The position numbers were made by a program, and so were the translations under genes. The notes under the pieces were generated by a model that was given only the letters and a program-made list of their open reading frames with translations, searched no databases and had not been told where the DNA came from. Below are positions 3,670 to 51,688 of a stretch of DNA of 64,000 nt, in pieces. The stretch is from a virus. The stretch covers positions 1 to 64,000 of the IMG/VR virus record IMGVR_UViG_3300009157_000018, one strand, 5' to 3'. The number at the start of each line of letters is the position of its first letter. Position 1 is the stretch's first letter.

Positions 3670-4029
3670 ATGACGAGAGAATTGCTGTTCTCCGTAACTA
3701 AGAAGGACTTGCGGATAGATACCTTCAAGTCTGGTGGCCCTGGAGGACAGAACCAGAATAAGCGAGATACGGGAGTTCGCATTACTCACAAAGCCTCTGG
3801 CGCAGTGGGTACAGCTCGCGAACACCGAACACAGGAACAGAATAAGAAAACCGCTTTTCGTCGAATGGCGGAAAGCAAGCAATTTAAGGCTTGGCATCGC
3901 GTAGAAACTGCTCGTCGATCCGGTTACTTAGCCGATATTGAGCAGAAGGTAGAGAAGCAGATGGCTCCTAGTAACCTACGGATAGAAGTCGTACAGGAAG
4001 GAAAGTGGGTAAAATGGCGACCAACGTAG
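3670..4029 (+). CDS. peptide chain release factor (RF-1/GGQ) domain protein, peptidyl-tRNA hydrolase-like
   Basis: DTFKSGGPGGQNQNKRDTGVRITH...RTQEQNK matches RF domain 3; no codon-recognition domain. Confidence 0.9.
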   Translation: MTRELLFSVTKKDLRIDTFKSGGPGGQNQNKRDTGVRITHKASGAVGTAREHRTQEQNKKTAFRRMAESKQFKAWHRVETARRSGYLADIEQKVEKQMAPSNLRIEVVQEGKWVKWRPT

Positions 4030-34933: not shown

Positions 34934-35007
34934 TGGAGCCGCAGCGAGGAATTGAACCCCGATTCACCGCTTACAAGGCGGGTTTCTTGCCGTTAGAAGA
35001 CGGCGGC
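34934..35007 (-). tRNA. tRNA-Thr(UGU)
   Basis: cloverleaf, loop CTTGTAA, encoded CCA. Confidence 0.85.
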
Positions 35008-35020
35008 TCGCGTGTTAGAA

Positions 35021-35308
35021 CTAGGGCGCGGGCTCAGGCTCGGGCTCTGGCTCTGGCTCAGGTGCGGGAGCCGGGGAAACGGCTTCCGTGATCGCGTCAA
35101 TGTCCGCGTCAGCCTCTTCGGCTGTGACAAGTAGAGCGTCGATCTGCTCCTGGGTGACGGCGCCTGCCATCAGTTCGTCAAGTTGTGCCTGTAGTTCGGC
35201 CAACTTTGCGCTTGCGTCGGCTGATGCAGCCATAACTGCATCAAATGCTGCCTGTGAGCTTGTCTTAAGGTCTTCTAGCTCTGCTGATAGTGCTGTAATA
35301 TCTGCCAT
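35021..35308 (-). CDS. acidic coiled-coil protein with C-terminal (PE)n tail
   Basis: SD GGAG; PAPAPEPEPEPEPEPAP. Confidence 0.7.
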   Translation of the reverse strand: MADITALSAELEDLKTSSQAAFDAVMAASADASAKLAELQAQLDELMAGAVTQEQIDALLVTAEEADADIDAITEAVSPAPAPEPEPEPEPEPAP

Positions 35309-35480
35309 TATTGTCTCCGTGTTTTCAAGGATTTGTAACTGTAATCGGTTTTTCTGGGAATTCCGTTTCCCACCCCACAATGAGTCCCAGAAATTCTCTG
35401 GTTGCCCACCACGGTCTTTATTTCTATCTACTTTACTCGTATCGGTCCCCCTTTCTCTGGAGGATAACTGCTCCTATAAC

Positions 35481-35508
35481 AGTATACCACATACCTCCAT
35501 CCTGTCAA
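35481..35508 (-). promoter_or_regulatory. sigma70/sigA-type promoter
   Basis: TTGACA-16nt-TATACT with TG extension. Confidence 0.7.
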
Positions 35509-35514
35509 TAGATT

Positions 35515-35589
35515 TGGAGGACCAGTTGGGGGTCGAACCCAAGTCGTCGGTTTACGAAACCGGCATCCTAGCCACTAGACGACTGATCC
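35515..35589 (-). tRNA. tRNA-Thr(CGU)
   Basis: loop TTCGTAA, CCA. Confidence 0.85.
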
Positions 35590-36129
35590 CCTGATAATTT
35601 TTCGCACCTGAGGCCATGAGGAGGCCCTAGGAAGCCCGCTAAGGTCCGTAGTGAGGTTGTGCGCCCTAGCAAATAAAATTGCCTTCCTGTCGGATTCCAG
35701 GAACTCTAGGCAATTTTGAGGCTTGTCATCAACAAGCAATTCTGCGTCAGTAAAATCGATCTTCCGATCTTTAGGCCCGACGATGGTGACTCTCTGGAAT
35801 TGAGGGCGCCATTTGCCGAGCCACTTCCAAGTGTTGTACTCGGCCCATTGGGGCTTGGAGGTAACGCATTCTAGATAATGACCTTCCCGCCGTAATCGAT
35901 CTAAGGTTCCGATTGCTCCGTCTACGGCAGGGAAGGTATGCCATAACCATTCTCGTTCTCGTAGCCATGTCCACCAGTTCTGTCCAATGATAGGATCAAG
36001 GATAGGATGTAGGTCCCACTGATAGATATCTTCTTCGGAAAGAACTACACCGTACTCCTTCTTAACAGAGTCGCGGAGTCCCCCCACAAAATCTAGAACA
36101 GTATCGTCTAGATCGATTGCCAAATGCAT
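35575..36129 (-). CDS. 5'(3')-deoxyribonucleotidase (HAD, NT5C)
   Basis: IDLDDT, VTS, K and LVDDK motifs. Confidence 0.9.
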   Translation of the reverse strand: MHLAIDLDDTVLDFVGGLRDSVKKEYGVVLSEEDIYQWDLHPILDPIIGQNWWTWLREREWLWHTFPAVDGAIGTLDRLRREGHYLECVTSKPQWAEYNTWKWLGKWRPQFQRVTIVGPKDRKIDFTDAELLVDDKPQNCLEFLESDRKAILFARAHNLTTDLSGLPRASSWPQVRKIIRGSVV

Positions 36130-36311
36130 TACTTCGACTTGATTTCGACTATTTCAACGGCTTCTGTAGGATTGAAGTCCCAGATCGAAACATCATCTAA
36201 TCCAAGTCCTGTTCCATTTTTCTCAATCAATTCCTTGAGCACGAGGGCTTCAATGCCTCCGTGGACCGCGATCTCGTAAGAGATCGTAGCCTTGACAACG
36301 GAATCTACCAC
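36129..36311 (-). CDS. hypothetical protein
   Basis: coupled 60-aa ORF. Confidence 0.55.
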   Translation of the reverse strand: MVDSVVKATISYEIAVHGGIEALVLKELIEKNGTGLGLDDVSIWDFNPTEAVEIVEIKSK

Positions 36312-36677
36312 TTACTTTCCTTCCTCTTCATCGTGAAGAATCTTCGAAGCCACGAATTCCCCAGCCATGATATTGAACATCACGGCAGCCGCGTGGTCTT
36401 CGTCTGTTTCCCCCGTCGCCCATTGTATCAGATGCCGCAAAGCCGACGAGCGATAGCGTGCTAGTTCTTCTTCTCCTCTCGCCATCTCCCAATTGCGAGC
36501 GTCGTATTTCTCAGCTCCCCTGGTCATCAGGTCTGCAAATCGCGTTAGCATCTGCTCATGATACGGAACGCCGAGCGGAAATAAGAGATCGAATCTGGCT
36601 TTCCCATCCTCGGTATCGCGTACCATTCCGCTCTCGTACTCGCTACGCTTGCCAGAATCCTTGGTAATCCTTGTCAT
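36312..36677 (-). CDS. dATP/dGTP diphosphohydrolase domain protein (DUF5664-like)
   Basis: GMVRD..GKARFDLL...GAEKY..NW...SALRHL...EDHAAA..FN. Confidence 0.85.
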   Translation of the reverse strand: MTRITKDSGKRSEYESGMVRDTEDGKARFDLLFPLGVPYHEQMLTRFADLMTRGAEKYDARNWEMARGEEELARYRSSALRHLIQWATGETDEDHAAAVMFNIMAGEFVASKILHDEEEGK

Positions 36678-36857
36678 ACCTTCCCTTATCATCGTAGAAC
36701 TGTGGTTGCTGGTAATCCTTGTGGGTGTGACGATCCTTGGTGTTGTTGGTTCTAGAGCGAGAAGCATCACAGCATTTAATCCCACCAGGACAAGAGGGGA
36801 ACATATAAGTCTTGGGCTTATGCCTCTTGAAATTAGCCATCAACTCACCTTTAGTAT

Positions 36858-36933
36858 TGGTACCGCCCCAGAGAATCGAACTCTGCTGCATCTATATGTA
36901 ACATAGAGGCCCCCACCAGAAGGCAAGGGCGGT
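36858..36933 (-). tRNA. tRNA-Val(UAC)
   Basis: loop GTTACAT, A1-U72, CCA. Confidence 0.75.
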
Positions 36934-36935
36934 AT

Positions 36936-37009
36936 TGGAGCCGGAGCTGGGAGTCGAACCCAAACTGAATCCTTACCAAGGATTTAGTCTACCGTTAACT
37001 TACACCGAC
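36936..37009 (-). tRNA. tRNA-Thr(GGU)
   Basis: loop TTGGTAA, CCA. Confidence 0.85.
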
Positions 37010-37188
37010 TTGTTGTTTTCTTCTTCCCTCTTTAGAATACGAAGACAGGATTCGCACGACTTCTCGTCGGCAGGCAGTTCCGCTGCAGTCTTCGAATCCA
37101 TATATCCCCACTTACCACAATATGCTTTCGGAAGACCAATGCGGCTCTGAAACCGCTCGACATGCCAACTCTTAATAAGGAACCACAT
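37000..37188 (-). CDS. small Zn-binding protein
   Basis: WH...YCG...CESC. Confidence 0.55.
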   Translation of the reverse strand: MWFLIKSWHVERFQSRIGLPKAYCGKWGYMDSKTAAELPADEKSCESCLRILKREEENNKSV

Positions 37189-37190
37189 CT

Positions 37191-37370
37191 TTATTGAATC
37201 CCTGACTTACAATTCTTAGCTGCCGCGTGGCTGTTCTGGAACGCTCGTTCCTCGGAGTCACCATTCGCAATCGTCTTGTTGAAGACGCGCATGAATACTT
37301 GCTGACAACGAGTAGTGGTATATTCCTTTTTTACAGCCTCGGGAAGCTCCTCTGTCTTAGAATATGGCAC
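37191..37370 (-). CDS. ChaB-family protein (59 aa, not in ORF track)
   Basis: MPYSKTEELPEAVK...QQVFMRVFN...EERAFQNSHAAAK. Confidence 0.8.
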   Translation of the reverse strand: MPYSKTEELPEAVKKEYTTTRCQQVFMRVFNKTIANGDSEERAFQNSHAAAKNCKSGIQ

Positions 37371-37565
37371 TTACTTTACCTTCCTGAAAGAATCTTCATA
37401 ATTCGATCTCCATTTCCGTACCTCGCTAGGGCTTGGAAGTCCTGGTATATGCACAATCTCGCCAAAAGGTTCAGCGTAAGGATCGTAGTCTTCCTCTTCG
37501 CGCTTGCGTTCCCAAGCAAGTAGTCTCAGAAGAAACCACCGACCTATGCCTTTTATATCGCGCAT
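37371..37565 (-). CDS. hypothetical protein
   Basis: MRDIKG... with SD GGAGG. Confidence 0.55.
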   Translation of the reverse strand: MRDIKGIGRWFLLRLLAWERKREEEDYDPYAEPFGEIVHIPGLPSPSEVRKWRSNYEDSFRKVK

Positions 37566-37575
37566 GTCCTGCCTC

Positions 37576-37917
37576 CTAGGGTATTTGGGTCTTTTTATTA
37601 GTGTAGCCTCTAGTGTGTGTTCTGATGCGGTGACAGTTGGAGCAGACCACATCGCACTTGACTATCTCCAATTGTAGGCGCTCAATAGACATAGAGGAGG
37701 CTCTGACTGACCCTATCGCGAATTCCTTGTCGCCCCTATGGTCGAAGTCCATGACATATGGTGGGTAACTTTCCCCGCAGTCGGCACATGGCTTGCTTTT
37801 CGCTGCATCGATATAAGCTCTAGTGCGTGCCCGTGCGCGAAGGTTGGAGTCAATGTATTTCTCCTTGTTCGCCTCATAATGAGCACGATAAGATTCCTGT
37901 GATGCCCAACCGCTCAT
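37576..37917 (-). CDS. HNH endonuclease
   Basis: CADC...DFDH...CDVVCSNCH. Confidence 0.9.
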   Translation of the reverse strand: MSGWASQESYRAHYEANKEKYIDSNLRARARTRAYIDAAKSKPCADCGESYPPYVMDFDHRGDKEFAIGSVRASSMSIERLQLEIVKCDVVCSNCHRIRTHTRGYTNKKTQIP

Positions 37918-37935
37918 GGTCGCCTTCTATAAAGT

Positions 37936-38012
37936 TGGTCTGGGAGGCTGGGATCGAACCAGCGACCTTCTGCTCCCAAAGCAGACGCGCTACCTGGCTG
38001 CGCTACACCCAG
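37936..38012 (-). tRNA. tRNA-Pro(UGG)
   Basis: loop TTTGGGA, CCA. Confidence 0.9.
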
Positions 38013-38020
38013 ACGCTAAT

Positions 38021-38092
38021 TGGAGAGAGGGGGCACGATCCCCTGACGAGGGGCTATCACCCTCGCTTGGTCCCAACCAACATGGCTCTCCA
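38021..38092 (-). ncRNA. non-canonical tRNA-like element
   Basis: GGAGAG/CTCTCC-A stem with three arms; T-loop ATCGTG; no canonical anticodon loop. Confidence 0.5.
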
Positions 38093-38228
38093 TTGAAATC
38101 CCGGCTACACGGCATTACGCCTTACCACTGCCCCAAACGAAGGAGCACCCACCTTCCTTACCGGGTGCGCGTAGCAGCGGCCTCACGGCTCACACTCCAC
38201 GCTACCGTGGGAGTCACCCACGAATTAT

Positions 38229-38304
38229 TGGTGCTACCGGACGGGATCGAACCGCCGACGCTCTGCTCTTCAAGCAGACGCTCTACCTACTGAGCTACAG
38301 TAGC
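38229..38304 (-). tRNA. tRNA-Phe(GAA)
   Basis: loop TTGAAGA, CCA. Confidence 0.92.
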
Positions 38305-38306
38305 AC

Positions 38307-38390
38307 TGGTGGTACTCCAGGGATTCGAACCCCGATAGCCAAGACGACTGCTTTACACGCAGTTGATTTCACCCACTTACCATGAGTACC
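38307..38390 (-). tRNA. tRNA-Tyr(GUA)
   Basis: loop GTGTAAA, extended variable arm, CCA. Confidence 0.85.
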
Positions 38391-38392
38391 AT

Positions 38393-38464
38393 TGGCGCCG
38401 CCAGAAGGACTCGAACCCTCAATAAAAGCTTAGAACACTTCGACCCATCCAATGGGATGGCGGC
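38393..38464 (-). tRNA. tRNA-Arg(UCU)
   Basis: stem GAAGT/GCTTT, loop GTTCTAA, G73, CCA. Confidence 0.7.
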
Positions 38465-38472
38465 GTATTTTG

Positions 38473-38625
38473 TTACGGAGTGAGTGCGCTCAGTGCTAGA
38501 GCAACCAGCACTAGCCCAACCCATCCTAGTTTGATGGTGCTAGTTCCCAACTTGAAATCGATAGCCTCTAGTCCAAATAGGATTGCGGCTATGATATACA
38601 TAATTAGATCAGGAGTAACGTCCAT
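38473..38625 (-). CDS. 50-aa membrane protein
   Basis: MDVTPDLIMYIIAAILFGLEA...GWVGLVLVALALSALTP. Confidence 0.65.
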   Translation of the reverse strand: MDVTPDLIMYIIAAILFGLEAIDFKLGTSTIKLGWVGLVLVALALSALTP

Positions 38626-38697
38626 TTATACCCTCTTTGCGAAGAAGATGATCGCTAAGATCACCAATATGATAATCAGAATTGTTACTACGTCCAT
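38626..38697 (-). CDS. 23-aa single-helix membrane peptide
   Basis: MDVVTILIIILVILAIIFFAKRV; SD GAGGTG. Confidence 0.65.
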   Translation of the reverse strand: MDVVTILIIILVILAIIFFAKRV

Positions 38698-38860
38698 TTT
38701 CTCACCTCTGTTGTGCCGGTAACGAGACTTCCGGCTCGGAACCTACCGCCAGAGCGATGCCGACGAGGGCCTTCCCGAGATGGCTTCTGGCTTATACCTC
38801 GGTACACATGACCCAACCGCTTACGGGGACCACGTGGTAGTCCTTGGGAGCGGGGTTAAT

Positions 38861-38948
38861 TGGCGGAAGGCCAAGGAATCGAACCTTGGCTGGTGTTACC
38901 CAGGCTACTGTTCAGCAAACAGACACATTACCGCTCTGTCAACCTTCC
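38861..38948 (-). tRNA. tRNA-Ser(GCU)
   Basis: loop TTGCTGA, long variable arm. Confidence 0.9.
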
Positions 38949-38950
38949 GT

Positions 38951-39026
38951 TGGTGAGTCCGGCAGGGCTCGAACCTGCATACGCGGAGTTTAAAAGACTC
39001 CCGTTCATCCGTTGAACTACGGACCC
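38951..39026 (-). tRNA. tRNA-Lys(UUU)
   Basis: loop CTTTTAA. Confidence 0.9.
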
Positions 39027-39029
39027 ATT

Positions 39030-39103
39030 TGGAGGACTCTGCCAGATTCGAACTGGCGTAAGCGGGTTTGCAATCCGCCCCCTCGCCGCTCGGGCAAGAG
39101 TCC
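39030..39103 (-). tRNA. tRNA-Cys(GCA)
   Basis: loop TTGCAAA, U73. Confidence 0.9.
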
Positions 39104-39363
39104 TTGTTAACCTCTGGCGACTGCGGTGACCACAAACACACCCTACTTACGCTGGGGCCTACGATGATCGCAAGCGATCTTGGGCGCCTGGGCAGTCCGC
39201 CGATCAGACGCGCATGTGGTCTCTTCCTCAGAGGCTAATTATTGGAAGAAAGGCTTACACACCGCGCATTTATTTCTGATTCACGCGGCCCTTATCTAGT
39301 CCGGCTAAGCAGTACAGAAACACTGCTTTCGCCCCCCACTCCTGGGCCTTCCTTCGCATCTAT

Positions 39364-39439
39364 TGGTGGGCAGCATAGGGATCGAACCTATGACCTACTG
39401 TATGTCATACAGACGCTCTTACCGCTGAGCTAGCCGCCC
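39364..39439 (-). tRNA. tRNA-Val(GAC)
   Basis: loop ATGACAT. Confidence 0.85.
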
Positions 39440-39612
39440 GCTTGTTCTTTTGCTCGTTCTAATATCGACTTGCGCTCTTCCTCAGGGTCTACTAAAACTA
39501 CTCTGGGAGAAGGTGATAAAGGAACAACTTCTTCTTCCTTATCCTCCTTCGGTCGGTCCGGCATACGCTCCTCGGGTCGGAACTGCGTATAAGTTCGCTT
39601 TCGTTTAGCCAT
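39430..39612 (-). CDS. hypothetical protein
   Basis: 60-aa charged ORF. Confidence 0.55.
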   Translation of the reverse strand: MAKRKRTYTQFRPEERMPDRPKEDKEEEVVPLSPSPRVVLVDPEEERKSILERAKEQAGG

Positions 39613-39817
39613 GATTCACCCCATCGTCTTCGATAGTAATGTTGGATTCTTTGAAGGGGACTGCTCCACCTTCATTCTCCCAATCGGATGCTGGCTGATC
39701 TTCTACTGATTCGTAGATGCGCCGCAATCGATCCGATTCGGTCCTGCCTCCAAAGGCAGGTTGGCGAGTAATTATTCCTATATCGTTCATATTCTCCTTA
39801 GATCGTAGTTTCGCCAT
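39605..39817 (-). CDS. hypothetical protein
   Basis: 70-aa ORF; internal SD AAGGAG. Confidence 0.55.
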   Translation of the reverse strand: MAKLRSKENMNDIGIITRQPAFGGRTESDRLRRIYESVEDQPASDWENEGGAVPFKESNITIEDDGVNHG

Positions 39818-39956
39818 CTGTCCCTATATACTCCATCATCATCGGGGACTTGCATGGCCGATCCGACCACCAAGTGCCAATCATTGATCGTAATGTGGAG
39901 TCGTATACCTTCAAGACCACAACTCCATCGTGTGCATAGATGTATTTTCATAGTTT

Positions 39957-40032
39957 TGGTAGCCCCCCTGAGATTCGAACTCAGACTGGAACGCTTTTGA
40001 GACGTTTGCCTCTGCCGTTGGGCTAGAGGGCC
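39957..40032 (-). tRNA. tRNA-Leu(CAA), short variable loop
   Basis: loop CTCAAAA; 76 nt. Confidence 0.85.
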
Positions 40033-40034
40033 AT

Positions 40035-40110
40035 TGGTACCCTCGGTCAGATTCGAACTGACACTGGACCGGGCTTAAACCGGACGCCTCTGCCGTTGGG
40101 CTACGAGGGC
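40035..40110 (-). tRNA. tRNA-Leu(UAA), short variable loop
   Basis: loop TTTAAGC; 76 nt. Confidence 0.85.
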
Positions 40111-41342
40111 TCTCTTAGCCGGAACCCGGCCTGTACCTGTTCGGGTTCGGCACGAATAGCCGACCCCTTAGATTGATCAAACAACTCTGCTATTGTATGC
40201 GATCTTTTCTCAATTGTCAAGTCATGCTCGGCAGCCCATTGTGCGGACTCAGTTGCATTTAACTCACTGAATCGGATGCTGGCTGAAATTCGACCAGGAC
40301 GAGCCACCGCTGGATGGAATCTACCGATATCTTCATTGGTAGTAATCAGTACAAGGATGCGAAGCCCTTGACCAATCAATCCATCTACGAGGTTCAGTAG
40401 ACGACTTAAACCCTGGCCTGATCGCTCTTTAGCATCTGCGCTTAAGAGCTCGCCTGTATCTTCGAAGATCAGGGTGCGCCAGCGTTTGTCTGGCTCACTC
40501 TCGCCCTCGTCATCATCAAGCGGAGAATATCTCTCACTACCGATGATAACATTCATCAGATAGGATGCTTCTGCACCGAAGAATTTCTCAGGGTCAACGA
40601 CATACTCGAAATCACACCAATCTCGCCATTCGTTAGCCAGTGCCCGAATTGCATAGGTTTTCCCGGTTCCTGGAGGGCCATACCACAAGAGCAATTGTCC
40701 TGTGACTAAAGATTCGGGCCGGAAATCCTTGGCCAACATCTTCGATAGACCTGTGTAGGTCTCATAAGAATAGTTGGGTGCGATTTCGTCCCATTTTGGA
40801 ACTGCAATCTTCCGACGAATCAGATTCGGGCCGTTGGATGCCAGCGACCAGAAGTGCAGATCAATGATGTGTTCGTCGCCTTCGGCTGTGATCGGCTTAT
40901 ACACATCATGTAGGCCGATCAGCCACTTCACACCTATGTCATAGTCATCTGTGTAACAAGTGAAGGTAGAAGCTCCGGCATCGCGAGATACAATGTCAAT
41001 GATAATCTCGTCATTGATCCAAGTAAAACGCTCCCAGCGCTTGCTGCTATTCTTGAAAGTTTTGGGGTCCATGTAGCTGCGCCGATAAAACAACGGCACG
41101 CCCATGTCCGCAAGGTGAGACTCTTCTACGACTACATCCGTCTCCCAATTGGCAGACACACAATAACGAAGACCTCGGGCCGCGATCTCGCGCATCGCGA
41201 TATCGTGTCCCAGACTGTCATCGCTGGTTTCCAAGGCCAATCCAATTTGCTTCGCATCAGTCTCGACTAATACCCCTGTACTTGCCGGTAGACCAATTTC
41301 AGCCCTGGAGAAATCCTTGCCCTTGTCGTATGATCTTCCCAT
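40101..41342 (-). CDS. AAA ATPase (DUF5925-associated type)
   Basis: GPPGTGKT, IFED, LLNLVDGLIGQG, TTN, RPGR. Confidence 0.88.
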   Translation of the reverse strand: MGRSYDKGKDFSRAEIGLPASTGVLVETDAKQIGLALETSDDSLGHDIAMREIAARGLRYCVSANWETDVVVEESHLADMGVPLFYRRSYMDPKTFKNSSKRWERFTWINDEIIIDIVSRDAGASTFTCYTDDYDIGVKWLIGLHDVYKPITAEGDEHIIDLHFWSLASNGPNLIRRKIAVPKWDEIAPNYSYETYTGLSKMLAKDFRPESLVTGQLLLWYGPPGTGKTYAIRALANEWRDWCDFEYVVDPEKFFGAEASYLMNVIIGSERYSPLDDDEGESEPDKRWRTLIFEDTGELLSADAKERSGQGLSRLLNLVDGLIGQGLRILVLITTNEDIGRFHPAVARPGRISASIRFSELNATESAQWAAEHDLTIEKRSHTIAELFDQSKGSAIRAEPEQVQAGFRLREPS

Positions 41343-41359
41343 GTTCCTCCCGAAATATT

Positions 41360-41436
41360 TGGGGTGACCGCAGAGGCTCGAACTCTGTTACCTCGGTCCA
41401 CAACCGAGTGCCTCAGCCGGTTTGGCTTCGGCCACC
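41360..41436 (-). tRNA. tRNA-His(GUG)
   Basis: loop TTGTGGA, G-1:C73. Confidence 0.9.
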
Positions 41437-41441
41437 ATGGT

Positions 41442-41513
41442 TGGCGGGAACGGTAGGAATCGAACCCACTGCGTTCTGCTTTGGAGGCAGTCGCCTTACC
41501 TTAAGTCGAACCC
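41442..41513 (-). tRNA. tRNA-Trp(CCA)
   Basis: loop CTCCAAA; two U-U pairs in acceptor stem; short D-arm. Confidence 0.7.
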
Positions 41514-41573
41514 GCGCTAATGGGAGTGCCAGGCCAAACGCTCAACTCGACCCCTGTTGCTCCCTTGTCGGGG

Positions 41574-41603
41574 ATTCTACTACACCCCGATAGCGCTTGT
41601 CAA
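41574..41603 (-). promoter_or_regulatory. sigma70/sigA-type promoter
   Basis: TTGACA-18nt-TAGAAT. Confidence 0.7.
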
Positions 41604-41605
41604 GT

Positions 41606-41896
41606 TTATCCTTGAGGCTGTTCGCCTGAAGGCGGATCGCCCAGAGCAGCGCTTCCAGAAGAAGCCGCCTCAGCAACGAGGGCCTTGGTGGTCTTCGCTG
41701 AGAAGACGAGCTGACGGATAATTTCTGTAGCGATGGCAGCGGCAGCAAGGCCAACAGCCACAACAAACTCAGACGAGAACTCTAGCCCTAACTGGCCAGC
41801 AATAAACAGCGTAGCAGCAGTAGCAGCGGCAGAAGAGTAAGCGACAATACGAGCAGCTTCTCGTTCTAGTAAACCTTTAATCCAATCTGGTAGCAT
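41606..41896 (-). CDS. holin-like membrane protein
   Basis: 2 TM helices, IRQLVFS motif; downstream of endolysin. Confidence 0.7.
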   Translation of the reverse strand: MLPDWIKGLLEREAARIVAYSSAAATAATLFIAGQLGLEFSSEFVVAVGLAAAAIATEIIRQLVFSAKTTKALVAEAASSGSAALGDPPSGEQPQG

Positions 41897-41920
41897 ATCT
41901 AAATTCCTTACTATATAGTA

Positions 41921-42826
41921 TTATCCCAACGCGACCTTCGCGTTGTTAATCTTCTGGTTCTGCGCCGTGAGAATCACGGTCATGTCATCCAGTTGAGTCT
42001 TTAGAGGGGCAGTAGCAGCAGCAATCTCTGCGGCGCAATCCGATGGAGTAGAAACAGTCTCAGCAGAAATAAGAGGCGTTAGTGTAGAGATATGGAAATA
42101 TCCGCGCTCTTGCTTGCTTCCTGTCCACAAAGCACCCGTATACCATGCGCTTGATCCATTGATGTTGGCTCCACCGACTTGAAAATCTGGATAAAAGATA
42201 GTACCAGCCGGGAATTGAGCAAGAGCTGCGTTTGCAGTACTTGGATCACGCCGGAAGTTCGTGCCAGCATTTTTGGTTGATGCCTGCTTATTGATTAGCC
42301 GCTGAGGATTGCTTCCAAGTACCACTTCTGATGCTCCTGCCGTAAGAATGGTTTGATCTAACAGGGGCCACAAATCCTTGGCCACACCATTAGGAAATTG
42401 ACTAGTGTGCTGTTTACAATCTGCATGTAGATGTGGGCCACTGATTCCGTAACCAGTTGCACCCAGGACACCAATCTGTTGCCCTTTAGACACGGTTGTA
42501 TTCACAGCCACACTAAATGACTGAAGATGGGCGTATCCTGTAGACCAATACCCACCTGAGTCTAAGCGACCAGCATGTGTCACTCGCATGATCAGGGCTC
42601 CATGACCAACCTGGCCCGGTGTATTTTGAATATACCGACTGGTTACCTTACCAGAGGCCATTGCATACACGGGAGCCCCCTGTCGTGCATTGCCAATGTC
42701 AAGAGCACATCCAACACCGGACCTTACATGCGCGGCACATCCACGAGTTACGACGAAATCAAGATTACCAGCTGGCCTAACCCAACCTTCTGGGTGGAGA
42801 TAGCCAGGAACTGGAGTTGCAAACAT
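41921..42826 (-). CDS. endolysin, M23 peptidase with SH3-like domain
   Basis: ALDIG...YAHL...GATG...GPHLH; NFRRDPST SH3-like; C-terminal coiled coil. Confidence 0.85.
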   Translation of the reverse strand: MFATPVPGYLHPEGWVRPAGNLDFVVTRGCAAHVRSGVGCALDIGNARQGAPVYAMASGKVTSRYIQNTPGQVGHGALIMRVTHAGRLDSGGYWSTGYAHLQSFSVAVNTTVSKGQQIGVLGATGYGISGPHLHADCKQHTSQFPNGVAKDLWPLLDQTILTAGASEVVLGSNPQRLINKQASTKNAGTNFRRDPSTANAALAQFPAGTIFYPDFQVGGANINGSSAWYTGALWTGSKQERGYFHISTLTPLISAETVSTPSDCAAEIAAATAPLKTQLDDMTVILTAQNQKINNAKVALG

Positions 42827-42848
42827 ACCTTCTGTCCTTCCGGGCGCT

Positions 42849-42872
42849 AAAAAGCGCCCTTAGGAGGCGCTT
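42849..42872 (-). terminator. intrinsic terminator
   Basis: AAGCGCC-TCCTAAG-GGCGCTT-TTT. Confidence 0.6.
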
Positions 42873-42877
42873 AAGTT

Positions 42878-42960
42878 TGGTACTGACCGAGAGATTCGAA
42901 CTCTCACCCCGAAGGACTTGTTCCTAAGACAAGCGCGTAAACCAATTCCGCCAGGCCAGC
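42878..42960 (-). tRNA. tRNA-Leu(UAG)
   Basis: loop CTTAGGA, variable arm. Confidence 0.9.
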
Positions 42961-43061
42961 ACACGATTAGTGCCGGTTACCGGGTCCGGCGCTGTTTCAG
43001 ACGGGATACATTTTACAAGCCCCAAATTGGCTAACCGATTACCTCTCACAGCGGTAAGTAA

Positions 43062-43139
43062 TGGTGGAGGCGCGGAGAATCGAACTCCGATCTTTCGGGT
43101 GCAAACCGACTGTGTAGACGCCACTAGCACTACACCCCC
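43062..43139 (-). tRNA. tRNA-Ala(UGC)
   Basis: G3-U70, loop TTTGCAC. Confidence 0.85.
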
Positions 43140-43147
43140 ACGACCAT

Positions 43148-43158
43148 ATTGTACCACA
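43148..43158 (-). promoter_or_regulatory. extended -10 promoter
   Basis: TGTGGTACAAT just upstream of tRNA-Ala. Confidence 0.6.
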
Positions 43159-43162
43159 GTTA

Positions 43163-43648
43163 TTATGAAGACGCCAGACGAATGATGAGATTGATCGCCA
43201 GAGAACCGACCGTAGCCGCGATCCCGACGAGAAGACCGACCTTCCATTGGTTGCTTCGTAGACGGTCGTTTTGGTCTTCACGATCTCTAGCCATCTGCTC
43301 CTTTGAAAGACGTTCGGTTTCAACCCGCTTGATTTCGGCAGTCTTCAGTTCTGCTAGCGTCATAGAAATGGTCGCAATGTCAGCCTTCGTAGCAAAATTG
43401 CGCTCTCGGTCATTCATGGTCTCACGCCACTCATTGGCGTCAGCCTTGTTTTCTTTCGCTAGCAGGGCGGCAGTGTCGATCGCCGCCTGAGAGAATTGGT
43501 GTTCCCTAGCGTGAGCGGCTTCGTGTTGTAAATGTTCCCGTTCATGATTGGCCCAAATTAGGTCCAAACGGTCACGGAGGGCAACAAGTTCGCCATGAAT
43601 GGTTGCATTTGTCGCCCGAGTTGAATTTTCAGTGTTGTCCTCAGGCAT
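43163..43648 (-). CDS. coiled-coil protein with C-terminal TM helix (lysis accessory-like)
   Basis: ANEWRETMND...KVGLLVGIAATVGSLAINLII; SD GGGGAGG. Confidence 0.7.
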   Translation of the reverse strand: MPEDNTENSTRATNATIHGELVALRDRLDLIWANHEREHLQHEAAHAREHQFSQAAIDTAALLAKENKADANEWRETMNDRERNFATKADIATISMTLAELKTAEIKRVETERLSKEQMARDREDQNDRLRSNQWKVGLLVGIAATVGSLAINLIIRLASS

Positions 43649-43686
43649 TACCCCTCCCCCTGTGCCACTAGCACATGGTATGCATG

Positions 43687-43905
43687 TTATACTTCAGGTT
43701 GATCGATAATTTCAGTTGCCTCTGGCATTTTCATGCCATCAGCATTGAAGTTCTTGGCTGCTTCCTTAGCAATAGCCTCGGCTGCTGGATCACGCATCGG
43801 CGTGAGCTTAGGAGGAAGAAGTAGTTCATCCTTCATAGCCTTAACGCGCTTCTCAGCCTCCTTGTCATCCTTGTATCTGCGACTATTACGCAAGTTCTTT
43901 AACAC
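43687..43905 (-). CDS. hypothetical protein
   Basis: GTG start after GAGGG; upstream part of the listed ORF is tRNA-Asp. Confidence 0.55.
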   Translation of the reverse strand: MLKNLRNSRRYKDDKEAEKRVKAMKDELLLPPKLTPMRDPAAEAIAKEAAKNFNADGMKMPEATEIIDQPEV

Positions 43906-43917
43906 TCTACCCTCGTT

Positions 43918-43993
43918 TGGCGGCGCCCAAGAGACTCGAACTCTCTGACTTCTGGTTGACAACCAGATACCGATACCCTTTGGCTTCGGCGCC
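43918..43993 (-). tRNA. tRNA-Asp(GUC)
   Basis: loop TTGTCAA, G73. Confidence 0.85.
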
Positions 43994-44002
43994 ACGCTAA
44001 TT

Positions 44003-44076
44003 TGGAGCGGCTACCCAGGATCGAACTGGGACTAACAGCTTGGAAGGCTGTTGTACTGCCGTTATACGACAGCCGC
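44003..44076 (-). tRNA. tRNA-Gly(UCC)
   Basis: loop CTTCCAA, U73. Confidence 0.9.
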
Positions 44077-44693
44077 TAGTTCAATTGTTGATGCTGTCCT
44101 GACCGCCTACCCCATAGCCAACTACCGATCATCAACAGAAGCACAACACCTACTACGCTAATCCCACCAGGAATTTCCGGTGTGGCTGTGTCCGTTAAGG
44201 GTCCAGGTAGAGATGGATACTCACCGCCGGTGCCAGGACCAGGTAGTGGAGGTGCAGGCGCTCCGGGTGAAACATCACACGGTCTACTGAAAAGGCTGAC
44301 GAAGTATGTTCGTCCAGTAGAAGGCTGGAAATATGCAGCGGAACCGATTTCAGCCCAATTGCCAGTCATTACGGCAAGGTGAGACGGACTGCCGATCCAT
44401 CCGATTACCGCCTGCGCCAAAGGATCAGCGTAACCCTTATTCCACGCAATGATCTCGCCCCACGACCAACAACCTAACCGTTGGGTTAGATCGGTGTGTG
44501 CAAACTCTCCCGTCACTGTGATTTCTATTACTCGTTCTAGTGCAACTCTGGTTAGCAGTGCAGAGGTTGGTAGGTCCGATTCTCCTACCGACACACGATA
44601 CGCATTAACGGCGTCATCGACTGGTGTGGCTGCGTAAACTGGAGTTGTAATCCCAAATACAAGTGCAAGAATGATAATAATTAACCTTCGCAT
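44076..44693 (-). CDS. secreted CAP/SCP-domain protein with C-terminal membrane anchor
   Basis: signal peptide; NAYR...FAH...GEIIA...WIGSPSH; Pro linker, TDTA, TM helix, RR. Confidence 0.85.
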   Translation of the reverse strand: MRRLIIIILALVFGITTPVYAATPVDDAVNAYRVSVGESDLPTSALLTRVALERVIEITVTGEFAHTDLTQRLGCWSWGEIIAWNKGYADPLAQAVIGWIGSPSHLAVMTGNWAEIGSAAYFQPSTGRTYFVSLFSRPCDVSPGAPAPPLPGPGTGGEYPSLPGPLTDTATPEIPGGISVVGVVLLLMIGSWLWGRRSGQHQQLN

Positions 44694-44763
44694 CAGGTCC
44701 CCCCCCAACATCATATAGTGCCAAATAGGTAGCTATCCGACCAGCCACACTATTTATATGTGT

Positions 44764-44839
44764 TGGAGCCCCTGACAGGAATCGAACCCGCATACGCTCT
44801 GCTTCGAAGGCAGACGTTCATCCGTTGAACTACAGAGGC
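44764..44839 (-). tRNA. tRNA-Arg(UCG)
   Basis: loop CTTCGAA. Confidence 0.85.
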
Positions 44840-44841
44840 CC

Positions 44842-44915
44842 TGGTAGCGACTGCGGGACTCGAACCCGCTTCTCCGACTTGAAAGGCCGGATGCTCAGCC
44901 CTATGCTCAGCCGCC
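44842..44915 (-). tRNA. tRNA-Glu(UUC)
   Basis: loop CTTTCAA. Confidence 0.8.
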
Positions 44916-44924
44916 GTGATAAAT

Positions 44925-45000
44925 TGGTACGGCCTACCAGATTCGAACTGGTGATCTTCTGATTGAGAATCAGATGCCTTGTCCGCTTGGCCAAGGCCGC
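44925..45000 (-). tRNA. tRNA-Glu(CUC)
   Basis: loop TTCTCAA. Confidence 0.85.
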
Positions 45001-45089
45001 ATAAGTAGCCCATCTCACCCCGTGACCGCAGCACTTGTTGGGACAGTTACTAGCGACACCCCAAGTGGGTCGAGAGATAGGCGTGTAAT

Positions 45090-45165
45090 TGGCGAGCCCC
45101 CCGAGATTCGAACTCGGAACCTTATGGGTAAGAACCATCTGCACCAGCCGTTGTGCTAGAGGCCC
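45090..45165 (-). tRNA. tRNA-Lys(CUU)
   Basis: loop TTCTTAC. Confidence 0.85.
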
Positions 45166-45238
45166 GCTGATATTGCCGTGTAGGAGATACGGCGACGACC
45201 ACCCCGCTCCCTACGAAGCGACGGGCTCTGACCCCCCT

Positions 45239-45312
45239 TGGCTGGCTCGCTAGGATTCGAACCTAGATAGTGAGGACCAAAATCTCACGTCCTGCCGTTA
45301 GACGACAAGCCA
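45239..45312 (-). tRNA. tRNA-Gln(UUG)
   Basis: loop TTTTGGT, U1-A72. Confidence 0.88.
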
Positions 45313-45574
45313 ACGCTATTGTGGCGGTAGTACTCCCCAGGCTATGGTGGGCCAAGGACCGCCGAATAAATGCGCTTACTAGCCTTGCGTCCAAGGCCAC
45401 CCCGCCTCCAGGCTTTCTACTAAAGTGCCTATTCCCTCAGCGCGTAGTCCAAGGAGCAGAGGCCCGAAGGCATGCTCCCGGTTAAAATAAGGTCAGGATG
45501 GATCACTGCAGGTCTCATCAACGCACCGGTATCTACTTGCCGGAGGCTCTCTCTTGGCCTACTGACCTTATAAA

Positions 45575-45659
45575 TGGTGGAGGCGCCGACGAGTTGCACA
45601 TCGGGTCCGAAACCGTTCTCTTGCGAGGCTTACAGCTTCGTCGAACCTATCTCACCCCC
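45575..45659 (-). ncRNA. mini-tmRNA: tRNA-like domain only, no tag ORF
   Basis: 5' GGGGGTGAGATAGGTTCGAC and 3' GGACCCGATGTGCAACTCGTCGGCGCCTCCACCA match ssrA ends; G3-U70; 9-bp P2 capped by a GCAA hairpin. Confidence 0.8.
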
Positions 45660-45663
45660 AGGT

Positions 45664-45738
45664 TGGCTGGCACGGAAGGGATCGAACCTTCGAATACACG
45701 GTTAACAGCCGCGCTCTTTACCGCTCAGACACATGCCA
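45664..45738 (-). tRNA. tRNA-Asn(GUU)
   Basis: loop CTGTTAA, U1-A72, G73. Confidence 0.88.
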
Positions 45739-45901
45739 ACGCTAATGGCGAACACGATCAATGTTTCGGTGCGGTCCATATCACGATAGTACCTCAGGTG
45801 ATCGACCCTTCGCTACGTTGAACCCTATCCTAGTTCGCCTAAGCCAGCGTTTGAACAGGGGCGACCCGTCAACCTCTGGCTGTATAAATGATGCTGCTAG
45901 A

Positions 45902-46042
45902 TTATCTGGACCTAGGAATCGACCGTCGCCTTAGAGGTCGTCTAATGTCCCTAACCTGAAATGCATTAAGCCTAGCCTTCGGATTGAATAATCCGATCTT
46001 AGGCTTATAAGAACGGGGAACTCTAAAAAATTTCCCAGGCAT
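45902..46042 (-). CDS. 46-aa very basic Arg-rich protein
   Basis: SD AGGGGA; MPGKFFRVPRSYKPK...RRPLRRRSIPRSR. Confidence 0.6.
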   Translation of the reverse strand: MPGKFFRVPRSYKPKIGLFNPKARLNAFQVRDIRRPLRRRSIPRSR

Positions 46043-46109
46043 AATATCCCCTAATCTGTTGGTCAGCGTCATCCTCATATCTGACCTGTCAGCCCCTCTA
46101 TACTCCATT

Positions 46110-46420
46110 CCGAGTGCCCTAGCACTTTAGGTATAGAACCTTGTGGCCGTTGCCACGCTGCTGACTTCCCGTCGTGGATTCTCCCAAGTCTGTGTCCTTT
46201 AATTTCCAGACTATATCCAGCTCGCGGGAAGCGATAATGGATAGTTGTGAAAGCCACAACAAGAGTCACCACTATAAAATACCTTTGGGGAGTTTATGGG
46301 AAGGTGTACACCACTACTCTTGCTCTTGCAAGTCCTGCTCCCCAAAGGCAGTTAAATTGGCTTCGCGGGTTTCTAGTAAGACCCCAAGCCAGTTACCTTC
46401 TGCCACAACTAGAACACGGC
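46110..46420 (-). ncRNA. putative ~310-nt structured ncRNA of unknown family
   Basis: terminal stem GTGTTCTAG/CTAGGGCAC, long-range TTGTGGC/GCCACAA, at least 6 hairpins, complementary loops. Confidence 0.6.
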
Positions 46421-46613
46421 GGTAACGAATAAATGAGGTAAGGCTTGCCTGGATACGCTACCCATGACCAAGGCGTCCGTCCAGGGCGATGGAATCCAAG
46501 CCATCGCCGTGCGTGGGGAGGAGGTACCCCACACCGTATTCGCCAATTGTTAAAGTTGCTGTGACCCCGGCCGGGTTCTCCCTTGGTTCGCTACCAGAGC
46601 CACAGCAAATAAT

Positions 46614-46631
46614 TGGTACGTCCTACAGGAA
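46614..46631 (-). pseudogene. 3' remnant of a deleted tRNA
   Basis: TTCCTGT-AGGACGT-ACCA only. Confidence 0.5.
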
Positions 46632-46632
46632 A

Positions 46633-46709
46633 TGGTAGGGACCCCGAGAGTCGAACTCGGCTAAACTACCTTATCAGAGTAGCGCTCACGACCGGCCTGC
46701 CCGATCCCT
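46633..46709 (-). tRNA. tRNA-Ile(GAU)
   Basis: loop CTGATAA. Confidence 0.85.
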
Positions 46710-46710
46710 A

Positions 46711-46788
46711 TGGTAGCCTCTCATGGAATCGAACCATGCTCTGAGCCGCTTATAAGACGGATTCCCTCTACCAGAGAGAACAGAGGCC
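46711..46788 (-). tRNA. tRNA-Ile(UAU)
   Basis: loop CTTATAA. Confidence 0.8.
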
Positions 46789-46796
46789 ATTCTGAT

Positions 46797-46870
46797 TGGT
46801 TGCGGGTACGAGAATCGAACTCGTTATCCACAGGTTATGAGCCTGGGCAACCCACCAGGGTCTACCCGCG
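46797..46870 (-). tRNA. tRNA-fMet(CAU)
   Basis: loop CTCATAA; C1:A72 mismatch. Confidence 0.8.
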
Positions 46871-46878
46871 AAGATCAT

Positions 46879-46952
46879 TGGAGCAGATAGCCGGGTTCGA
46901 ACCGACGATTCCTGCATGGCACGCAAGCGTGTTACCACTATACCATATCTGC
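46879..46952 (-). tRNA. tRNA-Gly(GCC)
   Basis: loop GTGCCAT, U73. Confidence 0.88.
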
Positions 46953-46953
46953 T

Positions 46954-47028
46954 TGGCTGCGTCTCTTCGATTCGAACGAAGGGTACACGGGTTCAGAGCC
47001 CGCCGCCTTACCGCTTGGCTAAGACGCA
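46954..47028 (-). tRNA. tRNA-Gln(CUG)
   Basis: loop CTCTGAA. Confidence 0.88.
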
Positions 47029-47139
47029 AAGATGTGTACGGTCTTAAGGCAAGGAGACCATCACAGGAGGTTTACCGCTCTGGCATTGCTGCCCTCTCGG
47101 TCTAACTCAGCACAGCTAGTACACAGACCCGTACTTAAT

Positions 47140-47226
47140 TGGCGGAAGTTGTAGGACTCGAACCCACACGGGCTTTCACACCCATCACTCTTTTCAGGAG
47201 AGCTAAGTACACCAATACGAACTTCC
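47140..47226 (-). tRNA. tRNA-Ser(UGA), atypical C33
   Basis: loop CCTGAAA, long variable arm, G73. Confidence 0.75.
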
Positions 47227-47334: not shown

Positions 47335-47363
47335 ACTGTAACACAGCTCTTTGGGCTTGTCAA
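47335..47363 (-). promoter_or_regulatory. promoter at head of tRNA/ncRNA island
   Basis: TTGACA-17nt-TACAGT with TG extension. Confidence 0.7.
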
Positions 47364-50042: not shown

Positions 50043-50450
50043 CTAATCCTTCCGTGTCAATGCTAATATCAATCGCGACTGGCCCATCGCTTCTCCTGGG
50101 TCCTCGTTAAAGAGGAAATTCCATTGAACCCCATCCATCTCAACATAGTCACAGTTGTTCAAGGTGCTTCGGTAGCGGGCATCCACCTTGACAGAACACT
50201 GTCCCAAGAAGGTAAGGCCACCAGCCACCGGGTTCCATCGCTTCACTGCACCAGGCTGGTAATAACTTGTTATGTAGATTGGAGTCCACTTATTGTCATA
50301 GCCTGTCCCATCGCAATGATCACACTCAATGTTGACAGCTACATTGCCGAGGGCGTTGAGGCCGCCGCAGACCGCGCAGAAGACGAGTTCCTCTTCCGGG
50401 GTTCTTGCATAGGCGATGATTGTTTTTGGTCGCTTAAAACTGGTTGGCAT
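50043..50450 (-). CDS. head-closure-like protein with Zn finger
   Basis: CAVC...CDHCDGTGY; position in operon. Confidence 0.6.
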   Translation of the reverse strand: MPTSFKRPKTIIAYARTPEEELVFCAVCGGLNALGNVAVNIECDHCDGTGYDNKWTPIYITSYYQPGAVKRWNPVAGGLTFLGQCSVKVDARYRSTLNNCDYVEMDGVQWNFLFNEDPGEAMGQSRLILALTRKD

Positions 50451-51688
50451 GTCGCCTCGATGATCTTCTGTAATTCCTGAGCTTTGGATTCCCATGTATG
50501 CGGAATAGCCCACTTGTGTGCCCGCTCAACCGTTTCGGCTACATGCTCAGGATGCGTATACACAAATTCCAGTTGCTCTGCTAGCGAGCGCCAAGAAGGC
50601 TTCGCGAAGAAGGAATACGCTGCCATGTTGCCAGGTTCATAATCCTGTACATCAATGAAATACCCTCGCCCGCGTTCGTGGAGCTCAACCTGAGGCCCAA
50701 ATTTAGTCGCGATCACTGGCGTCTTGGTAATCATGGCTTCTAGGCTTGGAAGGCCGAAGCCTTCGCCACGTGTTGGGAAAGCCAACACATCAGCCGCGTT
50801 ATAGAAGATGTTCATCTCTTCGTCGGTAAAGATGTTGGCGTTCTGCATCAGAACCGCATCAACCAACCCGTAAATGTCCCGGAGGTTAAATAGCGACCAC
50901 CCACCGTGGGTCGGACTCATCGGATTAGCCGAAGTATGAGGGATAAGGAACATTTCCTTATCAGGATGGAGTTTTCGAAACTCCATATAGCCCTTAAACA
51001 GAGTAGGAATGTCCTTACGCCATTGATTCGTGCCAACGAAGTAAACTAGGAACTTGTCTCTGAAATCAGGGATTACTGATCCCCGATTGTACTTACGGAA
51101 CACATCGCTGAGTTCCTTCTTGGCCTGTTCCTTAGGAATCGGGAAGTAAACTTTCGGATCGTATCCGTGATACAGGACCGGCATCTTCTCGAAGTCCGGG
51201 GAAGTCCGGGCCATCATTGCCTTTTGCCAGTAGGAATACGAAATCACTTCATCGAAGTTGGCCGCGATATCAGCGAACGCTGGAGGAAATGGCTCCGAAT
51301 CCATAGGCGAGTAAATGATCTTCTTAGCCCGATGCTTACCCAGAGGAGTAAGTTCTTTCGTTTCCCGGTCGCCCAAATAACGCATTACCACAGGGAAGTC
51401 GTTATTGATAAAGATTACATCTGGATCAAAGGTGCGAACCCACGCATTGGACTTGGTGTAACCAAACGGGTCCATCGCGTTATACATACCTGTCGGATCG
51501 GGAGAATAGAATCCAGCTGGGACCAACTTCCACGGAGTAGTTACCGGCTCCAGGTCATTGTAGTTAATGCCCAAGTGCAGAATCTCGTATTTCCCTGTCT
51601 TATACAGGTTTGTAAGTAAGCCCTTGGCAACTATGCCAAACCCAGTGCGTCCATGGTCACCGATGTACATCAATTTCAGTTTTTCCAA
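50339..51688 (-). CDS. glycosyltransferase family 4 (GT-B)
   Basis: TGFG, NQWRKD, YNAADV, EGFGLPSLEAM. Confidence 0.92.
   Translation of the reverse strand: MEKLKLMYIGDHGRTGFGIVAKGLLTNLYKTGKYEILHLGINYNDLEPVTTPWKLVPAGFYSPDPTGMYNAMDPFGYTKSNAWVRTFDPDVIFINNDFPVVMRYLGDRETKELTPLGKHRAKKIIYSPMDSEPFPPAFADIAANFDEVISYSYWQKAMMARTSPDFEKMPVLYHGYDPKVYFPIPKEQAKKELSDVFRKYNRGSVIPDFRDKFLVYFVGTNQWRKDIPTLFKGYMEFRKLHPDKEMFLIPHTSANPMSPTHGGWSLFNLRDIYGLVDAVLMQNANIFTDEEMNIFYNAADVLAFPTRGEGFGLPSLEAMITKTPVIATKFGPQVELHERGRGYFIDVQDYEPGNMAAYSFFAKPSWRSLAEQLEFVYTHPEHVAETVERAHKWAIPHTWESKAQELQKIIEATCQPVLSDQKQSSPMQEPRKRNSSSARSAAASTPSAM

Follow-up and report, generated by a model that had tools for sequence, protein, structure and literature searches.

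The Locus in Its Genomic Setting

The window, a stretch of 64,000 nucleotides, is part of a 91,461-base IMG/VR virus record with an estimated completeness of 73%. The record encodes a major capsid protein, a DnaB helicase, an integrase-family recombinase and sugar-modification genes; by its capsid and other phage genes it is a viral record, and its source is a soil phage. On the minus strand, the window carries an array of 31 tRNA genes (34934..47226), comprising 29 ARAGORN calls and 2 genes detected by Rfam only (44845-44915 and 43921-43993, minus strand, 43 bits each), at which ARAGORN was silent. Within this array we located an 85-nt gene with an encoded CCA end (45575..45659, minus strand). 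Based on its sequence, its fold, Rfam tmRNA (RF00023) matches to both ends and a covariance model of related phage elements (R2), we assign it with high confidence to the tmRNAs that consist of the tRNA-like domain (TLD) only, also called “CDS-less” tmRNAs, and refer to it as a mini-tmRNA.

Directly upstream of the mini-tmRNA lies tRNA-Asn(GUU) (45664..45738, minus strand; ARAGORN and sequence), with a spacer of 4 nt from the CCA of the tRNA to G1 of the mini-tmRNA. Because of this position within the array, the mini-tmRNA is probably made from the array transcript. A sigma-70-like promoter match (TTGACA, 17 nt, TACAGT, with TG) was found at 47335..47363 on the minus strand, preceding the first tRNA of the array. 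As a consensus match, with 1 found against 1.7 expected in shuffles, it represents a possible promoter of the tRNA array. The phage also encodes a tRNA-Ala(UGC) (43062..43139, minus strand) whose acceptor stem is the same as that of the mini-tmRNA (GGGGGUG/CGCCUCC-ACCA). Such identity between the two acceptor stems was observed in only 3 of 7 phages checked and is therefore not a rule.

Structure of the Mini-tmRNA

An earlier sequence-only reading of this DNA had described the element as an 85-nt tRNA-like domain of tmRNA without the mRNA/tag domain. This description holds: the letters of 45575-45659 on the minus strand are exactly as transcribed there, and tmRNA hallmarks, RF00023 matches to both ends, a covarying family and the match to an element of Mycobacterium phage DS6A (see below) agree with it. 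The 5' strand of the acceptor stem, GGGGGUG (45653..45659; sequence and RNAfold), pairs with the 3' strand CGCCUCC, which is followed by the discriminator A73 and CCA (45575..45585), giving a 7-bp stem with the G3:U70 pair. Next to the 5' strand lies a stemless D-loop analogue, AGAUAGGUUCGA (45641..45652), whose 12 unpaired nucleotides end in GGUUCGA and align with the UUCGAC of the Rfam tmRNA consensus; its end and the next base together make up the tmRNA hallmark GGUUCGAC. There is no D-stem, and the position of the anticodon arm is occupied by P2 with a GNRA cap.

The P2 region (45608..45640, minus strand; RNAfold and family comparison) comprises, in addition to the P2 helix, an internal loop on the 5' side (AAGC), a cap stem of 3 bp that carries a GCAA tetraloop, and one bulged A. 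The P2 helix had been called a perfect 9-bp helix; all 9 bp are present, but they comprise 7 Watson–Crick and 2 G:U pairs. Between the P2 strands the GNRA-capped stub measures only 13-15 nt and replaces the mRNA-like and pseudoknot domain of about 300 nt. A GAC linker (45605..45607), which forms the GGAC junction with the last P2 base and is conserved in all family members, leads into the T-arm (45586..45604). The T-arm was rightly listed as a part of the element, but as a tmRNA hallmark it is atypical, having a 6-bp stem (CCGAUG/CGUCGG) and a 7-nt loop UGCAACU with a G in place of the U55 seen in tRNAs and in the rest of the family. With its 6 bp the T-stem gives an acceptor/T stack of 13 bp, and these deviations could weaken the geometry for EF-Tu or SmpB.

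The minimum free energy structure computed by RNAfold for the 85-nt element is the proposed fold (−30.7 kcal/mol). Compared to shuffled sequences this energy is unexceptional (z −1.3), and thermodynamics alone is thus no proof of the structure. We also considered a tRNA-Ala identity for 45575-45659 and rejected it: neither ARAGORN nor Rfam makes a tRNA call here, and the anticodon arm and D-stem are missing.

Detection by Standard Tools

On the window, ARAGORN reported neither a tmRNA nor a tag at 45575-45659, and Rfam at the gathering threshold returned tRNAs only, so that the mini-tmRNA was not called. When a 101-nt stretch was searched alone, RF00023 aligned 45575-45659 end to end (model positions 1-374, 28.5 bits), with 304 central positions of the model deleted down to 13 nt. 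A tmRNA match restricted to the two ends is what the sequence-only reading had predicted. The score lies below the RF00023 gathering cut-off of 47 bits and also below the scores of other family members with this model. Further, the tRNA-Ala of the phage reached 28.8 bits with RF00023, close to the value of the mini-tmRNA, and the Rfam tmRNA score alone is therefore not specific.

With standard tmRNA (RF00023) the element shares the alanine identity elements, the UUCGAC/GGAC junction, P2a and the T-arm. It differs in its length of 85 nt compared to about 360 nt, and the resume codon, the tag reading frame, the stop codon and PK1-PK4 are missing. Lacking a tag ORF and a stop codon, it cannot by itself direct tagging or termination.

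A search of 500 nt around the locus additionally gave a weak alignment to permuted tmRNA (RF04321, 16 bits). We rejected a permuted (two-piece) tmRNA because its score is far below the cut-off, with only the 3' half matched (27.3 bits, cut-off 47), because A3:U70 would replace G3:U70, and because about 50 nt before tRNA-Gln leave no space for a coding piece. The weak full alignment relies on GGAGGCG, a complement of the acceptor 3' strand located downstream in the spacer between the mini-tmRNA and tRNA-Gln.

Other members of the family are more readily recognized by the Rfam model, with mini-tmRNAs scoring 51-76 bits with RF00023, above the cut-off, in 17 of 18 records tested; the element of DS6A scored 43 bits. 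ARAGORN called none of the family members checked as a mini-tmRNA. At four loci (L014, L030, L031 and L046) it reported “tmRNAs” of 324-343 nt with odd tags, whose 3' end coincides with that of the mini-tmRNA our model finds there; these calls are probably over-extended and hide the short gene.

Conservation in Close Relatives

In Logan contigs from three independent soil-metagenome studies, the element is present without an insertion; the three contigs cover 45359-45746, 45399-45746 and 45603-45746 of the window. The short form at 45575-45659 is not an assembly artefact. Both an assembly deletion and a full-length ssrA in all relatives had been named in the sequence-only reading as findings that would speak against it; the soil contigs of three studies speak against the former, and the short form conserved in the related contigs against the latter. 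Two of the three contigs stem from relatives that are 90-95% identical and differ from the window at only two places within the 85 nt. A C>T change at 45614 (plus strand) converts the P2 wobble pair U26:G46 into U-A, while a G>A change at 45623 (plus strand) turns the GCAA cap into GUAA and thereby keeps the GNRA motif. Over 215 nt downstream, the same contigs show 11 substitutions and 5 indels, a contrast that speaks for constraint on the element. The single contig from an RNA library that touches the region matches tRNA-Asn only, continues with unlike sequence and represents other DNA.

Scanning IMG/VR for a T-arm of the window type (6-bp stem, UGC loop) yielded no matches, whereas the same scan of metagenomes yielded 9. 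Most of these fall in conserved, apparently protein-coding sequence, and the sole real relative is a locus (L249) with the loop UGCGACU and a 6-bp T-stem that differs in sequence yet keeps its strands complementary; the 5' end of this locus is lost in the poly-C end of its contig. From the sequences, we take the T-arm variant of the window to be rare, but no one-off error.

Relatives of the phage as a whole were sought as well. Megablast of 20 kb of the window against isolated phages found none, blastn of the locus returned tRNA-Asn genes only, and a neighbouring 411-aa protein had no relatives in IMG/VR. The exact 5' 21-mer of the mini-tmRNA occurs in IMG/VR in one AT-rich phage contig only (L001). 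We rejected this contig as a carrier of the mini form, as positions 3351-3602 (minus strand) hold a reduced, tag-bearing tmRNA of 252 nt with a central domain (RF00023, 69 bits). This gene was missed by ARAGORN.

A Family of Mini-tmRNAs in Uncultivated Phages

We scanned IMG/VR for TLD halves lying 20-50 nt apart with the D-loop spacing of the window and only CCACCA required, and obtained 6 elements of 80-83 nt, 4 of them distinct. All 6 carry U70, although this position had been left free. A second scan, in which the 5' acceptor strand and the D-loop spacing were free, matched at least 120 contigs. A perfect 7-bp acceptor partner starting with GGG(G/C), which the pattern did not ask for, was present in 115 of the 121 matches listed. 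The resulting family comprises at least 115 viral contigs with at least 99 distinct sequences of 73-95 nt. A scan of a genome collection gave at least 120 further matches, of which only 13 had an adjacent 5' acceptor strand; the rest were left out of the member count.

Members of the family follow a common plan. Their P2 helix has 5-9 bp and is followed on the 5' side by an internal loop rich in purines (NAAR); the cap stem of 2-4 bp ends in a small loop, and the 3' side bears a short bulge. The window element fits this plan, and its T-arm deviates from the 5-bp stem and UUCGAnU loop of the family, a feature that varies within the family and does not define the kind. G1-C72, G2-C71 and G3:U70 are invariant in 87 members, with the 3' letters fixed by the scan pattern. 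In the alignment of these 87 members, 99.6% of the cells of 17 modelled pairs are paired, and 13 of the 17 pairs change on both sides. Shuffling the columns lowers the paired fraction to 71%, and sliding the partners to about 50%. Because the alignment was fitted to the structure of the model, these counts are biased in its favour. When the first five sequences were aligned with MAFFT, the result was similar, with 98.8% paired cells and 10 pairs with double changes.

To score the window element we used the covariance model R2, built from 87 related phage elements including that of DS6A, with the window and four seed loci excluded. The window element reached 56.9 bits (E 1.5e-11) and the tRNA-Ala of the phage 36.9 bits, 20 bits lower. 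As R2 was built without the window, it supports membership independently of the window's own sequence.

The UAA triplet was enriched at the P2 internal loop, being found in 55 of 85 family sequences compared to 33 ± 4 in shuffles. However, the conserved feature of this loop is NAAR; UAAA or UAAG stands at the usual offset in only 41 of the 85 sequences, and the others have GAAA or CAAA. Additionally, DS6A has no UAA at this loop, and in the window the U of the triplet is paired in P2. Based on these three observations, we do not interpret the UAA as a stop codon.

Of 60 family loci examined, about half lack a flanking tRNA gene, which indicates that the mini-tmRNA is independent of a tRNA array; several other loci lie only 1-12 nt from a tRNA gene. 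For 112 mini-tmRNA loci, any given protein family was found next to the element in 10 cases at most, and SmpB is encoded by 0 of 42 carrier records, of which 17 are at least 90% complete. The lack of both SmpB and a recurrent neighbour protein fits a dependence on host factors.

One complete IMG/VR genome of 123,582 bases (G007) carries a full-length tmRNA (77588-77979, locus L247) as well as a mini-tmRNA (46486-46567, locus L248). The former is 392 nt long, is called by ARAGORN with an atypical tag and scores 94 bits, while the latter is 82 nt long and scores 65 bits. This suggests that the two forms are not redundant and have different jobs.

Comparison to Known Tag-Less and Full-Length tmRNAs

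An element of this kind has been known since DS6A. Mycobacterium phage DS6A is listed as “(TLD only)” among ssrA-bearing phages by Hudson, Lau and Williams (PMC4131195), and its element is entered in the tmRNA Website as tmID 11587 (Phage__Mycobacterium.9); Mao et al. 2009 (RNA Biol 6:355) is cited for it in PMC4131195 and PMC11915505. Both citing papers report an inhibition of E. coli tmRNA by the DS6A form or by a molecule like it. PMC11915505 groups DS6A beside the CDS-less organellar tmRNAs, and the tmRNA-database paper, for which RefSeq viruses were searched, mentions DS6A alone. Our model R1, built without DS6A, finds an element of 83 nt in the DS6A genome (JN698994, 28478-28560; 54 bits, E 1.6e-10), which sits between gp33 and gp34 and is unannotated in JN698994.

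Both elements are phage-encoded and about 83-85 nt long. In each of them the acceptor stem contains G3:U70, the D-loop analogue has no stem, a short hairpin closes P2 and a T-arm is present, while a tag frame and pseudoknots are missing; models R1 and R2 both link them. They differ in their carriers, as the window phage comes from soil, is unrelated to DS6A and measures about 91 kb or more, and in their surroundings, the window element lying inside an array of 31 tRNA genes and that of DS6A between protein genes. The window encodes CCA, whereas the DS6A element ends in ACUA. The T-arm of DS6A is canonical (5 bp, UUCGAUU) in contrast to the 6 bp and UGCAACU of the window, and the D-loop and junction read GGUCGAC and GCAC in DS6A but GGUUCGAC and GGAC in the window. 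We conclude that the kind is already known and that the window element is a divergent, somewhat aberrant member of it. In view of the DS6A precedent, the sequence-only reading had overrated the novelty of the element. The breadth of the family in uncultivated phages is a different matter: we found no description of it in the searchable literature, where DS6A is treated as a single curiosity.

Tag-less tmRNAs have been described from jakobid and oomycete mitochondria, and forms of about 65 bp from plastids of Mallomonadaceae (PMC11915505); the jakobid cases agree with the mention of protist mitochondria in the earlier reading. Like the phage element, the organellar RNAs are reduced to little beyond the TLD and would depend on SmpB encoded elsewhere, if they work at all. 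They differ by descent from a resident bacterial gene and by serving organelle ribosomes, whereas the window element is a viral gene that would act on a host system. Rfam searches of the locus and of the element reported no match to the mitochondrial tmRNA family. Full-length tmRNAs are known from the mycobacteriophage Bxz1 group, from Bacillus phage G and, as two-piece forms, from marine phages (PMC4131195, PMC9004378). These are also phage-borne ssrA homologues and often lie beside tRNA genes, but have kept the tag frame.

Proposed Function

The properties attributed to the TLD in the sequence-only reading, namely alanylation and binding to SmpB and EF-Tu, are documented: canonical AlaRS charges the TLD, its affinity for SmpB is high, and its binding to EF-Tu is comparable to that of a tRNA. 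Of the whole tmRNA it is the TLD, together with SmpB, that moves into the empty A site and takes over the nascent chain there (PMC8012679). The phage RNA carries the sequence elements by which AlaRS, SmpB and EF-Tu recognize tmRNA. We propose that the locus is best explained as a phage gene for a TLD-only tmRNA that competes with host tmRNA, and consider this reasonably probable. A function specifically as an inhibitor or decoy is a slightly weaker proposition, to which we still incline; this mechanism is drawn from the established biochemistry of the TLD and from the DS6A precedent. Of the two functions suggested in the sequence-only reading, sequestration of SmpB is the one with published backing, namely for a DS6A-like molecule.

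The RNA would be cut from the array transcript and matured by the tRNA-processing enzymes of the host. Host AlaRS would charge it through G3:U70 and A73, and host SmpB would bind to its D-loop/P2 junction. The mini-tmRNA would then compete with the host's own tmRNA for SmpB, perhaps also for EF-Tu and for ribosomes that have stalled, so that trans-translation would be lowered during infection and phage proteins made from truncated or cleaved mRNAs would undergo less ssrA-tagging and degradation. We infer that herein lies the benefit to the phage. Given the complete phage genome that carries both a full-length tmRNA and a mini-tmRNA (G007), more may be involved than a mere shut-off of trans-translation.

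A productive role in ribosome rescue appears unlikely to us but is the most substantial alternative. An alanylated mini-tmRNA with SmpB would accept the nascent chain on stalled ribosomes, and the peptidyl-RNA would be resolved by the GGQ protein of the phage, by host ArfB or a release factor, or by drop-off and Pth; ribosomes would be freed, and a phage protein would gain one alanine and no degron. Entry into the A site and acceptance of the peptide are what the TLD with SmpB normally does (PMC8012679), and the persistence of tag-less mitochondrial tmRNAs together with imported SmpB suggests that a tag-free function exists (PMC11915505). The enrichment of UAA in the P2 internal loops of family members would also fit, but the motif is really NAAR, UAA is missing from this loop in DS6A, and in the window the U is paired in P2. 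The window phage does encode a stand-alone GGQ protein of 119 aa (3670..4029, plus strand; Pfam RF-1 domain 70.7 bits, phrog_3122 132 bits), which is nearer to the catalytic domain of RF1/RF2/PrfH than to ArfB and had been put forward as a release partner. However, the RF-1 domain was detected in none of 41 other virus records bearing a mini-tmRNA (17 of them at least 90% complete), and a phage-encoded releaser is therefore no general partner of mini-tmRNAs; a link between the GGQ protein and the mini-tmRNA in the window phage is pure speculation. Rescue is further opposed by the missing mRNA-like domain, so that no codon would be placed in the A site after translocation, and by the data on a DS6A-like molecule, which in the form relayed by the citing papers concern inhibition and not rescue. 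Even less credible to us is the specific version in which a working “one-alanine” rescue RNA, together with host SmpB, would take over the nascent chains of ribosomes that have stalled on cleaved phage mRNAs, with degron-free release by the phage GGQ protein. If it were true, a host pathway that destroys the product would have been turned into one that saves it, and the UAA and the 13-bp stack would be part of the adaptation.

We consider it improbable that the element does not mimic a step of translation at all and instead serves as an RNase P/Z punctuation or structural module of the tRNA array, or as an alanyl donor for a non-ribosomal reaction. Its distance of 4 nt from tRNA-Asn and the 1-12 nt that separate several family members from tRNA genes would suit a processing module, but the family loci that stand without flanking tRNA genes would not. 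Further, GGUUCGAC, GGAC, G3:U70, A73 and the encoded CCA are conserved far beyond the needs of a cleavage signal, and most members score above the Rfam tmRNA cut-off. Least probable by far is a functionless locus, whether a decaying remnant of a full-length phage tmRNA or an artefact of assembly. An internal deletion of ssrA can yield such a form, as a 102-nt gene found in the genome-collection scan illustrates, and the T-loop of the window is degenerate relative to the family. Against this stand the same short form in contigs of three independent studies, where the only two differences preserve the structure, the at least 99 distinct family sequences that keep all helices by compensatory change, and the more distant relative from a metagenome that retains the unusual 6-bp T-stem with a compensated sequence.

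If titration of SmpB is true, interference with ribosome rescue and ssrA-tagging would be a common phage strategy that can be tested with simple reporters. Such genes are present in well over a hundred uncultivated phage contigs, and phage pipelines miss this recurrent RNA gene; the variant of the window escapes the Rfam cut-off as well. For the window locus itself the result is confirmatory and not surprising, and its value lies in the prevalence and testability of the family more than in one locus.

Additional Observations at Related Loci and in the Window

The 102-nt gene mentioned above lies at an enterobacterial-type chromosomal ssrA locus (L241, 4791-4892, plus strand) and consists of only the 5' and 3' ends of an E. 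coli-like tmRNA. Its sequence shows the resident gene with its interior deleted, whether naturally or by engineering.

Between the mini-tmRNA and tRNA-Gln of the window lies a non-coding spacer of 262 nt (45313-45574, minus strand), which is kept in the related soil contigs but is more variable there. It contains a long hairpin closed by AAGGUCAG/CUGACCUU and followed by AUUUU, as well as a UUCG-capped hairpin; the folding energy of the spacer as a whole is unexceptional (z +0.66). On the other side of the locus, 313 nt upstream of tRNA-Asn (45747-46059) are missing from related phage contigs of two independent soil studies, which have AAGG instead. This segment is an indel hotspot within the tRNA array. 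Elsewhere in the window, at 16601-19461 and 50339-51688 (minus strand), genes for a DegT-type aminotransferase, a GDP-mannose-4,6-dehydratase-like enzyme and a GT4 glycosyltransferase were found, and their predicted products suggest a sugar modification of DNA, virion or host surface.
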